From Dictyostelium discoideum (Eukaryota): a DNA stretch of 64,000 bases. This document shows positions 12,183 to 52,722 of this stretch, one piece after another. Position 1 is the stretch's first letter. Every line of letters begins with the position of its first letter. Both the position numbers and the translations under genes were made by a program. The notes below the pieces were generated by a model. That model was given only the letters and a program-made list of their open reading frames with translations, was not told the DNA's origin and searched no databases. Location of the stretch: NCBI GenBank assembly GCA_000004695.1, contig CM000151.3, positions 5,440,001 through 5,504,000 on the forward strand, written 5' to 3'.

Positions 12183-12238
12183 GGGAATTGAACCATTGTT
12201 CTTTTTTTTTTTTTTTTACCTAAAAGCGGTGTTGAACC
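12183..12238 (-). promoter_or_regulatory. External B-box (exB) copies downstream of tRNA-Glu copy 1, at plus 12183..12194 (GGTTCAATTCC) and 12228..12238 (GGTTCAACACC). The pol III terminator T-run lies at plus 12258..12264.
   Basis: The B-box-like GGTTCGA(A/T)NCC sequence is repeated 30 to 80 bp 3' of the tRNA body on the tRNA strand. This arrangement is characteristic of Dictyostelium tRNA loci. Confidence 0.5.
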
Positions 12239-12265
12239 ATTGTTCTTAAATTTTCACAAAAAAAG

Positions 12266-12337
12266 CTCCCCATTCGGGAATCGAACCCGAGGTACCAGTG
12301 TGAAAGACTAGAGTGTTACCGACTACACCAATGAGGA
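12266..12337 (-). tRNA. tRNA-Glu (anticodon UUC), copy 1.
   Basis: The reverse complement reads TCCTCATTGGTGTAGTCGGTAACACTCTAGTCTTTCACACTGGTACCTCGGGTTCGATTCCCGAATGGGGAG. The acceptor stem pairs 7/7 (one G:U). The anticodon loop is CTTTCAC. A and B boxes are present. An oligo-T terminator follows the 3' end (plus 12258..12264). Confidence 0.85.
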
Positions 12338-12581
12338 ATTTGTTGAAATTTTTTAATATTTTACCTATAAATAAAGATATAAAAAATGTTATCCAATTCA
12401 AAAAATTTCGTTATTCCATTCAAAAAAATAAAGATGTAAAAAAATGCCTAAACATAATATTTTTAAATATCATTAAAAAGAATTTAAATTTTAAGGTATA
12501 AAACTGAACAGTTTTATAGTTTTTAACAGAAATACGTTATAGCAGGAGTAAAAAAAACCATTATTTTTAAATTTAAAAATC

Positions 12582-14112: not shown

Positions 14113-14646
14113 CTATATATAAAAATTTATTAATTAGAATTTAATATATATATAAAATATATACATACATTTTTTACAAATGTTTGTGAATTTGGTATGT
14201 TGCTAAATATTTGGTTGGTAGATAAAACACCAGTACGTTTAATTCTGTTTGCAGAGTTGGTTATTTTTAAAGTTGTTCTACGACTACCAAATGAAATAAA
14301 TGAATGGCAATTGCCAATCCTAACGATTAAAAATAAAAGCAACATCTATAAAAGATATCAGCCTTTTTGGAAATACTTTAATACCAATAACCATTTCTCA
14401 TACTTTGGAAATCTCGAAATTGAAACACTTGTGAACCAAATGGTTAGTTGACTGAGAAACTTTAACTTCAACAACAAATGTTGGAACTAAACTTGGTCTT
14501 CCTATAGGTAAAGCTTAGGTCTATATAACACCATTTTAAAGCAATACTTTTCTAATGTAAAAATTATTGTCTTAAACATTTTAAAAAGCATATTTAATTA
14601 ATCGAATGGGAATCGAACCATTGTTCTAAGTTTTTCACAAAAAAAG

Positions 14647-14718
14647 CTCCCCATTCGGGAATCGAACCCGAGGTACCAGTGTGAAAGACTAGAGTGTTAC
14701 CGACTACACCAATGAGGA
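14647..14718 (-). tRNA. tRNA-Glu (anticodon UUC), copy 2. The 72-nt mature sequence is identical to copy 1.
   Basis: It has the same sequence as 12266..12337, an oligo-T terminator (plus 14639..14645) and a downstream exB box GGTTCGATTCC at plus 14608..14619. Confidence 0.85.
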
Positions 14719-48650: not shown

Positions 48651-49135
48651 ATGGAATTAAATAAAAGTGAAATTAAAATGGCAACAAATATTGAGCCATT
48701 AAAAGAACAAGAAAATGAATTAAATGAAAAATTAAAGAAAACCACAATTAGTAAAACTGGAAAAAATAATAAATTGAAAAAAAATGAAAAGAAATTAAAT
48801 AAAAAATATAAAGGATTAAAATGGAAAAAAACAATTAAAAAGTTTGTAAAAGATTACCCAGATGGTTCAATTCCAGTTGATGATTTAAGAAAAATGGTTA
48901 TCTCTAAACAATTATCAAGAATTGAAAAAGATTTAAAAATCATTTTCAATGAAAAGGTAAAAATAAAAAATAAAAAAAATAAAACTAAATAAAAATTATA
49001 CTAATTATTTAAAATTTTTTTTTTTTTTTTTTTTTTTATTAAACAATTTTTTTATTATAGATTCAAGAACCAACAAAAATGTATGCACTTGTTGGTCATG
49101 AAGTAAAAAGATTACAATTTTTCCCAAAACAATAA
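48651..49135 (+). CDS. Small Lys-rich basic protein of about 126 aa. Exons: 48651..48956, 49061..49135.
   Basis: ORF 48651..48992 reads into the donor GAA AAG|GTAAAA at 48957. The acceptor tttattatag|ATT at 49060 continues IQEPTKMYALVGHEVKRLQFFPKQ* in phase 0. Function unknown; the composition is nucleolar-like and basic. Confidence 0.45.
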
Positions 49136-49206: not shown

Positions 49207-49417
<211 letters not shown>

Positions 49418-49683
49418 TTAATTAGTTATTTGATTAATTTTCATTAAGGAAATAAAAAAAATTAATATTTTATTTATGAATTTTAATTTTGAAAATGCAA
49501 GCAATTATTTTGATTTTGAAAATACAAGTATTATTATAATAAAACTTGTATTTTAAAATAAAAAAAAGTAATTATTATTTTTGTTTAGATTTAAAAACAG
49601 ATTTAATGCATTGAATTTAGAATTTTTAATGTTTAAATATAGAATCGAACCTGTATTTTATTGAAAATTCAATAAAAACCTGT

Positions 49684-49764
49684 TGTTGGCGGCGAGATTC
49701 GAACTCGCGAAGCCGAAGCATAAGAACTTGAGTCTTACCCATTTGACCACTCTGGTACGCCAAC
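49684..49764 (-). tRNA. tRNA-Leu (anticodon CAA), type II with a long variable arm, copy A.
   Basis: The reverse complement is GTTGGCG TA CCAGAGTGGTCAAATGGG TAAGA CTCAAGT TCTTA TGCTTCGGCTTC GCGAGTTCGAATCTCGC CGCCAAC A. It has a 7-bp acceptor stem, a 5-bp anticodon stem with loop CTCAAGT, a T-arm GCGAG/TTCGAAT/CTCGC and discriminator A. An oligo-T terminator follows (plus 49674..49678) and a downstream exB-like GGTTCGATTCT lies at plus 49641..49651. There is no intron. Confidence 0.7.
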
Positions 49765-50251
49765 GAAAATATATGGTTTTTTCCCACAGTAATAGCTGTT
49801 TTCGATTCAAAAAAATGATCTTTTTGGGAACATAATCGTTTAAACTAAACCGCATTATCCCCACTTCTTTCAAATGTTATTTTCTTTTATTTTGATCCAG
49901 AAAAAAAAAAAAATTCAAAAAGAAAAAAAAGAAAAGAAAAAGAAAAGAAAAGAAAAGAAATGGGAAAAAAAGAAATAATTATTTTTATTTCTTATTATTT
50001 CTAAAAAAAACTTTGCAAAAGATTTTAAAAAATGAGTTCAGAAACAATAAATAAATAAAAACACAAAAATCAATAAAAAAGATTAATAAAATAATGCTGA
50101 AAAACAATAAAAGTAATAAAATAAATTTAATATAAAATTTAATAAAAGCCAATAAATTAAAATATATATATTTTTAATTTTATTTTGAAATTTCATTTGA
50201 TTTTTGTTCAAATTAAAGTGAATTATTTTTACAATTCATTTGTTATTATTT

Positions 50252-50299
<48 letters not shown>

Positions 50300-50959
50300 T
50301 AAAAAATTGCATTTTATTATTTCTATCATTAAAATTTTATTTCGATTTCAAAGAAATTTATAGTTTTATCTAGAACATAGTCAATACTATTTTCACTTTT
50401 TATTATATTTATTTTTATCTTAATTTAAATGAGATTTAAATTTTATTATTAAAAAAAATCTTTTTTTCAATTTTTTTTTTTAATTTTAGACATATTTTAT
50501 TTTCTTCTTTTTTCTTTGAAATTATATTTAACAAACACATGTTTCAAATAGTAAAATTTTTTCAAATTTTTTTTTTTTTTTTTTATTATTATAATTTATT
50601 TTTTTTATTATTACATTTTATCTTTTTTTTTATTACATTTTTTTTTTTTTTTTTTAAAATATATTATTATTATTATTATTTTATTGTTTCATTTCGAAGA
50701 AACAAATTTTAAAAAAATTTTATTACTTTTTTGTTTTTAAAATAAATTGATGTAATGTTTGTGAATTAATTTTTATAAATATGAATAATTTTTTTTGGGA
50801 AATATTAATTATCAGAGGATCCAAATAATGAAAAAGAAGAGCAAGAATATCTAATAAATAATATTTAAGATGTTGGGGCTTCTAATTATATTAATACAAG
50901 ATCCCATCAAAATATTTATGATAATTTTTATAATTTGATATAAATAATAAAATAAACAA

Positions 50960-51672
50960 TGTGGTAAATAATATTCAAACTACCATTTCATCTTTACCAT
51001 TATCTCTATTATCACCATTATCATCATCATCATCTACATCATTAGCATTATCAACCGTTTCATCTTTACCATATATGTCAAAAAGATTCACCTTTTCGTG
51101 AAGATTATCAGCAGGTGGAGTACCAGAGTGGTTAAAAAGAGCCATCATTACCATGGAATTCAAAGGGTAAAGTTTCAGAGTGGTCAAAAAGAACCATCAT
51201 TACAATGTAAATCCTTTATGAGAGGAAACTGTTTATTCACACAAGATTAAAATAATAAAAAATGGTATTGAACATAAATGATAATTTAGAGTAGGCATAA
51301 TTTTTTTATATATAATCATATACTATTTTATGATTTATAAATCTTACTAACACTTTTAATATTTTAATTTTTTTTTTTTTTTAAATGAAAAACACCAGGA
51401 TTGGAATTGAAATTCTAGTTGAAATTGTAAATGAAATTGCAATTTGAATTGTAATTTAAAGTCTCAATTACAATTACAATTTCAATTGAAAGTTTCAATT
51501 ACACTCAAATACAATTTCATTTACAATTTCGACCAGAATTTCACTCCAATCCTGGTGGTTGTCCCATTTTTTTTTGAATGGAATAACGAAATTTTTAGTT
51601 GCTTCTTCTTGAGATATAACTCATTTTATTAATTTTCTTATTAGATATTACAGGTGCCTTTTAAGGTTGTAT

Positions 51673-51730
<58 letters not shown>

Positions 51731-52109
51731 GTTGAGGGTGTAGAGTGTGTTTAGTGACGTAATATATTTGTTGAGGTTTGATGGTAGTGCTACTGTGTGT
51801 AGTGGTGAGTTCCAGTGTTTGCTAAATCTTTCGAGTTGTAGGGAGATGATGTTTTTGAATTTTTTTATTTGTTCGTTGTTGGGTGCTTTTTTTTCTTGTC
51901 TGATTAGTTTGTATATGTTGTTTTTTGTTCTTTCCCAGGCTGCTGTTTGAGTTTTCTTTAGTTCGTGTACTAGTAGTTGTTTTCTTAAGTTTTTGAGTGT
52001 TATTCCTTCGTGGATTTTCTTGTTTCTTCTTCTCCAGATGTTTTCGCAAATAATGGCTATGGCGTTGGCTGTTAATGGAATGTCTAGTCTGTTGAAGATT
52101 TCTATTCCC

Positions 52110-52163
<54 letters not shown>

Positions 52164-52520
52164 TTATTTATAGAAAATACTGAGTGAATTATTGTATTTT
52201 TTGAGATGTTTAGGAAGTTCTATTGCGTGAAGAGGTGAGTTCCATTGTCTGTTAAATTGTAATAGCTTTAGCGAGATTAGTGAGTCTAATTTATTTTGTT
52301 CTTCTGGCCGTTGCTTTGATTTGATTCTTAATGTTTTGTTTATAACCGCTTGTGTCCTGTCCCATGCAGCTCTTTGTGTTTTAATTAGTTCAAGTATGAC
52401 TTGTTGTCTGTGAATTATTATTTCTTTTTCATCGTGAATGAGTTTGTTTCTTTTGTGCCATGTGGTTGTCCCTTTTTTTTTTTTTTTTTTTTTTTGAATT
52501 GGCATGTGGTTGTCCCATTA
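50960..52520. mobile_element. Complex repeat cluster immediately upstream of tRNA-Leu copy B. It contains two diverged copies of a poly(A)-tailed, retroelement-like unit of about 350 to 400 bp on the minus strand (bodies about 51728..52110 and 52163..52470, with poly-T tails on the plus strand at 51667..51727 and 52111..52162). There are three copies of the 5'-terminal motif GTGGTTGTCCC (51552, 52472, 52505). Tandem partial duplications of the tRNA-B 5' leader plus D-arm lie at 51118..51190.
   Basis: Local composition shifts from about 80% AT to G+T-rich. The two unit bodies align at roughly 70 to 75% identity (for example GTGAGTTCCAGTGTTTGCTAAAT against GTGAGTTCCATTGTCTGTTAAAT). Each is followed, on the minus strand, by an oligo-A tract. 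The whole cluster ends about 45 bp upstream of the tRNA, the classic position of tRNA-targeted TRE5-type insertions in Dictyostelium. Assignment to a known element family is not possible by eye. Confidence 0.45.
51391..51552. repeat. Long imperfect inverted repeat (foldback) of about 160 bp with arms of about 80 bp, CCAGGATTGGAATTGAAATTCTAGTTGAAATTGTAAATGAAATTG... against ...CAATTTCATTTACAATTTCGACCAGAATTTCACTCCAATCCTGG. It abuts one GTGGTTGTCCC plus oligo-T junction.
   Basis: The reverse complement of 51476..51552 matches 51391..51470 at more than 85%. Confidence 0.5.
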
Positions 52521-52550
52521 AAAGAGCCATCATTACAATGGATTTCAAAG

Positions 52551-52631
52551 GGTAAAGTACCAGAGTGGTCAAATGGGTAAGACTCAAGTTCTTATGCTTC
52601 GGCTTCGCGAGTTCGAATCTCGCCTTTATCA
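52551..52631 (+). tRNA. tRNA-Leu (anticodon CAA), type II, copy B. The internal 66 nt are identical to copy A but the acceptor stem is completely different (GGTAAAG/CTTTATC).
   Basis: GGTAAAG TA CCAGAGTGGTCAAATGGG TAAGA CTCAAGT TCTTA TGCTTCGGCTTC GCGAGTTCGAATCTCGC CTTTATC A, followed by ACAGTTTTT (terminator at 52636..52640). The acceptor pairs 7/7, with G2:U71. Confidence 0.65.
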
Positions 52632-52722
52632 ACAGTTTTTAAAGTTTTCACAGTTTGGACTTGTTTTAAAAAAAAAATCTTCCACATATTTTGAATTCAC
52701 TAGAAATTTTTTATAATAATCG

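Follow-up and report, generated by a model that had tools for sequence, protein, structure and literature searches.

The 64,000-nucleotide stretch of Dictyostelium discoideum chromosome 2 analysed here (contig CM000151.3 of GCA_000004695.1, positions 5,440,001 to 5,504,000 of the forward strand; hereafter the window, with positions counted from its first letter) carries two genes for tRNA-Leu(CAA), referred to as copy A and copy B, that are identical in sequence throughout a 66-nucleotide (nt) interior and at the discriminator base but differ in the acceptor stem, where four of the seven base pairs are exchanged on both sides with pairing retained. The most likely explanation of this difference is an ordinary one, that is, compensated AT-biased drift of a single helix in a duplicated gene. 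Copy B is probably an old duplicate, the GC-rich stem of which drifted towards AU via G·U intermediates, with the interior held constant through selection, gene conversion, or both.

The two copies, each 81 nt in length, were compared directly and found to differ only at linear positions 2, 4, 5, 6, 75, 76, 77, and 79. The acceptor stem is GTTGGCG/CGCCAAC in copy A and GGTAAAG/CTTTATC in copy B. Three pairs (G1-C72, U3-A70, and G7-C66) are common to both stems, and the preliminary description of this DNA, in which all seven acceptor pairs were said to differ, was thus overstated, although the difference of the stems on an identical body is real. Among the four remaining pairs, U2-A71 of copy A is replaced in copy B by a G2·U71 wobble, G4-C69 and G5-C68 are both replaced by A-U, and C6-G67 is also replaced by A-U. 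As a result, the stem of copy B consists of two G-C, four A-U, and one G·U pairs, while that of copy A includes five G-C pairs. Both stems had been described as fully base-paired, and this applies to copy B when the G2·U71 wobble is counted but not in the strict sense of Watson-Crick pairing.

The differences are clustered within the stem, affecting 8 of its 14 positions against none of the 66 interior positions (Fisher p = 1e-7), in agreement with the identical 66-nt body noted at the outset. Pairing at the four changed pairs is kept modestly beyond what chance would give in AT-rich DNA (p ~0.02-0.03). In the predicted folds the acceptor stem is closed in both copies, with minimum free energy (MFE) of -25.9 kcal/mol for copy A and -19.7 kcal/mol for copy B, the latter being weaker by about 6 kcal/mol. 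The 3' ends (...CGCCAACACCA and ...CUUUAUCACCA) tell the two variants apart within the first 8 nt.

A total of four tRNA genes were identified in the window by ARAGORN, two for tRNA-Glu(UUC) and two for tRNA-Leu(CAA). The two Leu genes are arranged head-to-head with 2.8 kb between them, and ARAGORN and Rfam agree on the positions and strands given for them in the preliminary description (Table 1). After addition of 5,440,000, the positions of all four genes coincide with those in Table S2 of Spaller et al. 2017 (PMC5391098), which lists GluUUC-9 (5452266-5452337), GluUUC-8 (5454647-5454718), LeuCAA-3 (5489684-5489764), and LeuCAA-1 (5492551-5492631); the starts of the Glu genes are those given by Rfam, one base inside those of ARAGORN. 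In addition, a neighbouring gene (48651-48956 and 49061-49135), when spliced by hand, yields a product exactly identical to DDB_G0275433 (LYAR-like) of AX4. Copy A therefore corresponds to LeuCAA-3 and copy B to LeuCAA-1, and both genes had already been catalogued as tRNA isodecoder genes. Two more LeuCAA genes, both of 81 nt, are included in the same table, LeuCAA-2 on chromosome 2 (6482159-6482239) and LeuCAA-4 on chromosome 6 (310825-310905). In an independent long-contig assembly (GCA_054883475.1), copies A and B and their flanks were recovered without any difference, which excludes an artefact of assembly.

Both loci are bona fide, intact, and RNA polymerase III (Pol III)-competent genes for cytosolic tRNA-Leu(CAA) and represent two isodecoders. 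The check by Infernal with the Rfam model RF00005, as suggested for this pair, gave full-length matches of 56.2 bits for copy A and 54.4 bits for copy B, compared with the gathering score of 29 bits. All seven acceptor pairs are standard in both copies (G·U included) with no unpaired stem position, and the terminal A of both was aligned to model position 71 as the discriminator. The traits of class II tRNA-Leu, an anticodon CAA at position 35 and a 10-nt insertion at the variable region, are present in both. The internal promoter boxes, TACCAGAGTGG (A box) and GGTTCGAATCT-type (B box), are identical between the two copies. A Pol III terminator of five T residues starts 5-6 nt after each gene, and the trailer ACAG(G)TTTTT follows the discriminator A in both copies, just as described previously. 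In both copies, the A box carries C at position 10, off the consensus with its near-universal G, and the D stem is composed of C10-G25, C11-G24, and A12-U23.

The published record of the two loci is in line with these features. De novo integrations of TRE5-A(bsr) have been mapped experimentally upstream of both genes, and the mapped-contig counts for the 20G tDNA, 100G tDNA, and 100G adapter-primer libraries are 1, 0, and 92 for LeuCAA-3 and 1, 33, and 1726 for LeuCAA-1 (Table S2 of PMC5391098). TRE5-A inserts itself 47 +/- 3 bp upstream of tRNA genes, the element's 5' end pointing towards the 5' end of the tRNA (PMC5391098), and according to PMC3159450, this targeting goes via the TFIIIC/TFIIIB complex. 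Because the targets of TRE5-A are tRNA genes loaded with TFIIIC/TFIIIB, integration reports the occupancy by the transcription complex, and the published integrations thus indicate, if indirectly, that both LeuCAA-1 and LeuCAA-3 are occupied in vivo by the Pol III transcription complex; at copy B, the natural TRE5 insertions described below agree with this.

By tRNAscan-SE 2.0, a total of 407 nuclear tRNA genes, 75 isodecoders, and 42 anticodons have been identified in D. discoideum, together with only three pseudogenes (one undetermined, one Ser-TGA, and one Leu-TAA), and these three are also the ones for which mature tRNA was not detected (PMC13063481). As LeuCAA is absent from this list, neither copy is a called pseudogene; a pseudogene call by tRNAscan-SE had been named beforehand as the result that would overturn the reading of the pair as two genes. 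None of the marks of a tRNA pseudogene (broken helices, low score, or tRNAscan-SE flag) is found in copy A or copy B. The scores, the folds, the TRE5-A integrations, and the pseudogene list altogether support the earlier proposal that both are structured genes and neither is a pseudogene. Both mature tRNAs are presumably made and charged; LOTTE-seq datasets for the tRNAs of D. discoideum are available (PMC8163159, PMC13063481).

Outside the genes, the identity between the two copies is interrupted by the stem halves, which form the boundary of the identity block, and is back in the 3' trailer and flank. The 3' flanks (ACAGGTTCGATTC for copy A and ACAGTTTGGACTT for copy B) are alignable through a B-box-like element, with a score above 97% of shuffles (p ~0.03). 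We take this element, GGTTCGATTCT in copy A, to be the external B box that Dictyostelium tRNA genes typically carry; its counterpart downstream of copy B is degenerate (Table 1). The common trailer ACAG and the homology of the 3' flanks point to whole-gene duplication followed by stem-specific compensated change, while gene conversion confined to the tRNA body, as had been suggested, leaves these similarities on the 3' side of the stem unexplained.

The D. discoideum genome is known to contain local pairs of identical tRNA genes, as cited in PMC8163159. The Leu pair is similar to them with respect to the distance of 2.8 kb, the same anticodon, and the trailer and external B box in common, but is different in that local pairs are normally 100% identical whereas the Leu genes differ at 8 nucleotides. 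Identity of the interior is thus usual in this genome, as other local pairs, the Glu pair in the window and a Gly pair in D. cf. discoideum, are 100% identical. The identity of the Glu pair spans from about -17 to +45 and includes the external B box (GGTTCGATTCC and GGTTCAATTCC). Sharing of the 3' trailer and external B box is therefore found in both pairs of the window, but the flanks of the Leu pair are far more diverged.

A possible record of the ancestral stem is found about 1.4 kb upstream of copy B, where a decaying array of units of about 52 nt (U0, U1, and U2) is located. Each unit corresponds to the first 23 nt of copy B (the 5' half of the acceptor stem and the A box) plus the 29-nt spacer preceding copy B, and the decay increases leftwards from U2 through U1 to U0. 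The younger U2 (51166-51213) reads GGTAAAG TTTCAGAGTGGTCAAA, the acceptor half being as in copy B. U1 (51114-51165) reads GGTGGAG TACCAGAGTGGTTAAA, and its acceptor half shows two differences from copy A (GTTGGCG) and two from copy B (GGTAAAG), sharing G4 and G5 with copy A and G2 and A6 with copy B. The more decayed U0 (about 51062-51113) was recognized on the left of U1 with p ~0.005. In the second assembly (L001 8054-8135), the array has the same sequence. The idea that the region holds a whole decayed tRNA was rejected, because the array gave no significant match to the 3' part of copy B. Candidates for the origin of the partial copies are slippage at AAA(A)G microhomology and 5' transduction by a TRE5 copy; in the literature, no description of 52-nt partial tRNA-gene copies as a TRE5 integration product was found. 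Only the helix-confined pattern of the stem changes and this array of partial 5' copies were previously unremarked.

Under the drift explanation, one local inverted duplication, in which the 3' trailer and the external B box at least were included, would have given rise to copies A and B, after which the neutral flanks would have decayed while the 66-nt interior stayed identical. The interior, which carries the A and B promoter boxes, the anticodon arm, the long variable arm, and the nucleotides of tertiary interactions, would have been held by purifying selection, possibly aided by conversion within the set of four LeuCAA genes. Located outside the promoter boxes and at both edges of the homology block, the acceptor stem may then have been changed by compensated substitutions in the lineage of copy B. 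In this lineage G4-C69, G5-C68, and a presumed G2-C71 would have moved from GC to AT, the direction favoured by the 78%-AT genome, and on a route through G·U the pairing would never have been lost, with pair 2:71 possibly still at the G·U stage. The step from GGTGGAG/CTCCACC to GGTAAAG/CTTTATC consists of five changes, all of which are G-to-A or C-to-T transitions. Since non-functional copies such as U1 are expected to drift from G to A but not in the reverse direction, the simplest reading is that G4 and G5 were ancestral in the copy B lineage. Both the direction of change and the role of mutation bias are suggested by these sequence comparisons.

Compensatory evolution of helices via G·U intermediates is Kimura-type compensatory neutral substitution. 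The Leu pair is similar to such cases in the order of G-C, G·U, and A-U, with 2:71 still at G·U, and in that the changes proposed for the copy B lineage are all AT-ward transitions. A number of points, however, weigh against drift as the full account. The polarity is taken from a single fossil copy, U1, which is itself mutating. At pairs 2:71 and 6:67, copy A and the presumed ancestor differ by double transversions, for which a wobble intermediate does not exist, and Kimura-type compensation leaves these two unexplained. About eight other G-C pairs in the body are without any change, although drift alone predicts some, and thus extra constraint or interior conversion must be invoked. The upstream flanks of copies A and B showed no significant likeness in the same alignment test that detected the 3' flanks. 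A mature tRNA of each variant is presumed, and as the stems compared are those of copies A and B among the four LeuCAA genes, the stem of the copy B type could be the majority type.

Edge-limited gene conversion, in which the stems diverged long ago and the interior was recently homogenised among the four dispersed LeuCAA genes, is possible but doubtful. The conversion tracts would not extend into the last 7 nt at either edge, where the homology ends, and this would agree with the sharp boundary (100% identity over 66 nt against 57% difference over 14 nt) and with the lack of substitutions in interior G-C pairs outside the promoter boxes; the four LeuCAA genes are possible donors for each other. 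In Schizosaccharomyces pombe, conversion between dispersed tRNA genes is an established process, the serine tRNA genes sup3, sup9, and sup12 being an example of concerted evolution, and identical interiors amid differing surroundings are found both there and in the Leu pair. The Leu pair is different from the yeast genes in that the homology extends past the 3' half of the stem, and its interior represents a candidate tract only. The discriminator, ACAG, the T-run, and the alignable external B box are all shared on the 3' side, where a tract limited to the interior predicts no identity, and as identical dispersed tRNA copies are the norm in this genome, recent conversion is not required. Selection for both stems appears improbable. 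Such functional specialisation might concern the kinetics of leucyl-tRNA synthetase, processing, stability, stage-specific use, or fragment production, and it would fit with the pairing retained at all four changed pairs, with the difference in stem stability of about 6 kcal/mol, and with the contribution of pairs 3:70 to 5:68 to the identity of human tRNA-Leu. Other tRNAs of D. discoideum are reported to be regulated at the level of isodecoders during development (PMC13063481). The changes, however, run in the direction of plain AT mutation bias, and the one pair at a wobble intermediate is as expected under ongoing neutral compensation.

The AU-rich stem of copy B, its MFE, its degenerate external B box, and the retroelement debris and partial self-copies around it might alternatively mark relaxed selection on a decaying gene, which binds transcription factors but is poorly functional or non-functional. 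This is very unlikely, as copy B has an intact interior and no unpaired position, scores just 1.8 bits below copy A, is absent from the three tRNAscan-SE pseudogenes (for which mature tRNA was also not detected), and has a higher count of de novo TRE5-A integrations than copy A (1726 against 92 with the 100G adapter primer). The homopolymer runs and retroelement fragments that fill the region upstream of copy B could raise the suspicion of an assembly artefact or chimera, but this is refuted by the genes, flanks, and fossil units being identical in the independent assembly. It would also be surprising if the variants turned out to be selected as distinct isodecoders, or if the retroelement-battered 5' side of LeuCAA-1 and its array of partial self-copies marked a mutational process that specifically speeds up change at the ends of tRNA genes targeted by TRE5.

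As isodecoders, the two genes are similar to others of D. discoideum (PMC13063481) in that they have the same anticodon, are intact and annotated, and show few differences, all of which preserve the structure. Typical isodecoders, however, differ at scattered single positions, whereas the Leu pair differs within one helix by four double compensated changes and nowhere else. Borrowing of the copy B stem from another Leu isoacceptor was rejected, because the 5' acceptor halves of LeuAAG (GTAAGCT), LeuUAG (GGGAGAT), and LeuUAA (GCAAGGG) in PMC8163159 supplementary file 2 all differ from it. The T arm and junction GCGAGTTCGAATCTCGCC of the two Leu genes is also that of LeuUAA in this file, while the rest of the LeuCAA and LeuUAA tRNAs differs, which hints at common descent of, or exchange between, these two families.

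The region upstream of copy B is occupied by a nest (51368-52519) in which at least four 5'-truncated 3' ends of TRE5-family retrotransposons without long terminal repeats (non-LTR) lie in series, all on the minus strand and with poly(A) tails of 15-53 nt. The youngest remnant, e1, is flanked by a target-site duplication of 13 bp, ATGTGGTTGTCCC, at 52460-52472 and 52504-52516, and its 5' junction is located exactly 47 bp upstream of the first nucleotide of copy B. The -47 junction, the target-site duplication, the distal poly(A), and the 5' end towards the tRNA are altogether the hallmarks of a TRE5-A target site. The e2 remnant, which is interrupted by e1, encodes 98 C-terminal residues 97% identical to the end of the 980-residue reverse-transcriptase protein DDB_G0279389, while e3, of another subfamily, is 47% identical to the same C-terminus of open reading frame 2 (ORF2). 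The oldest part, e4/e5, presumably represents the TRE5-A B-module end, oligo(A), and C-module. The sequence GTGGTTGTCCC was considered as a simple repeated target-site duplication of the native flank of copy B but was dropped, as it is also found within TRE5 ORF2 and module sequences; among its occurrences, the 52460/52504 pair is the only clear target-site duplication.

The element terminus T(n)GAATGGAATAACG / GAATTGG is also located about 50-90 bp upstream of the tRNA-Glu gene at 12.4 kb. There, remnants of T(n)GAATGGAATAACG and T(n)GAATTGGATAAC are found at 12386-12425 on the minus strand, upstream of GluUUC-9. A weaker look-alike, CGATTC followed by A7, is located about 40-50 bp upstream of copy A (49803-49816, plus strand). 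The arrangement at copy B, with serial minus-strand elements and the newest at -47, is similar to the known targeting of tRNA genes by TRE5-A, for which both Leu genes are de novo targets (PMC5391098). This likeness bears on the neighbourhood of the genes and not on the difference of the acceptor stems.

Table 1. Positions in the window of the tRNA genes, their flanking elements, and the repeats upstream of copy B.
Feature	Position	Strand	Basis
Copy A, tRNA-Leu(CAA), LeuCAA-3	49684..49764	-	ARAGORN; Rfam; PMC5391098 Table S2
Copy B, tRNA-Leu(CAA), LeuCAA-1	52551..52631	+	ARAGORN; Rfam; PMC5391098 Table S2
3' trailer ACAGG and T5 terminator, copy A	49674..49683	-	sequence
3' trailer ACAG and T5 terminator, copy B	52632..52640	+	sequence
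B-box-like GGTTCGATTCT, about 33 nt downstream of copy A	49641..49651	-	sequence; aligns with the copy B counterpart
Degenerate counterpart AGTTTGGACTT, downstream of copy B	52652..52662	+	alignment of copy A and copy B 3' flanks
Decaying array of about 52-nt units U0, U1, U2	51062..51213	+	sequence repeats
e1, youngest remnant: T23 (minus-strand poly(A)) and GAATTGGC	52473..52503	-	sequence
e2, TRE5-type 3' end: T49 and ORF2 C-terminus, interrupted by e1	52113..52519	-	protein match
e3, second 5'-truncated TRE5-family 3' end: T53 and ORF2 C-terminus, other subfamily	51675..52112	-	protein match
e4/e5, oldest 3' end: T15, palindromic module, internal T9, GAATGGAATAACG	51368..51674	-	sequence
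tRNA-Glu(UUC) GluUUC-9 and GluUUC-8, identical, 2.4 kb apart	12265-12337; 14646-14718	-	ARAGORN

The Leu pair provides a clean example of compensatory change confined to one helix between paralogous tRNA genes, with four double substitutions including one at the G·U stage, and the fossil partial copies nearby may polarise the change of the stem. It also indicates that, in an AT-rich genome, a Pol III-active tRNA-Leu gene tolerates an acceptor stem very rich in AU. Should the two variants differ in charging or expression, they would represent a natural system for the effects of the acceptor stem with the rest of the tRNA being identical, and if the mutational process at TRE5-targeted gene ends is real, retrotransposon targeting would drive the diversification of tRNA isodecoders. 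The practical value is small.

Searches for other LeuCAA genes and for orthologous loci were performed with several queries. The tRNA body, used as an exact pattern, had no match in contigs from metagenomes, prokaryote genomes, or viruses, and its translation in the three open frames, used for detection of spurious open reading frames over other LeuCAA genes, gave no candidate. Likewise, no match was obtained in a text search of the literature with the tRNA sequences. With the 535-residue neighbouring TPR protein as query, the hits were dominated by low-complexity and multi-TPR proteins, also in an exhaustive search of representatives. A composite query of the TPR domain and the two TRE5 ORF2 tails yielded no orthologue of this neighbour but identified TRE5 fragments from several assemblies of D. 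discoideum and D. cf. discoideum; six loci with such fragments carry tRNA genes for Met, Asn, Gly (two), His, Arg, and Ser, but none for Leu. The 90% cluster of DDB_G0275433 consists of a single sequence.

Downstream of GluUUC-9 (12188-12245, minus strand), CACCGCTTTTAGGT followed by A16 forms an insertion (12202-12231) with a 14-bp target-site duplication, GAACAATGGTTCAA, that splits the external B box of this gene; from its sequence, it looks like a severely shortened retroelement of the downstream-targeting (TRE3-like) type. The G+C content of the window is about 20%, and homopolymer runs of 25-55 nt are frequent throughout its intergenic DNA. Between DDB_G0275433 and copy A, a (TTA)n microsatellite of about 70 repeats is located at 49209-49423.

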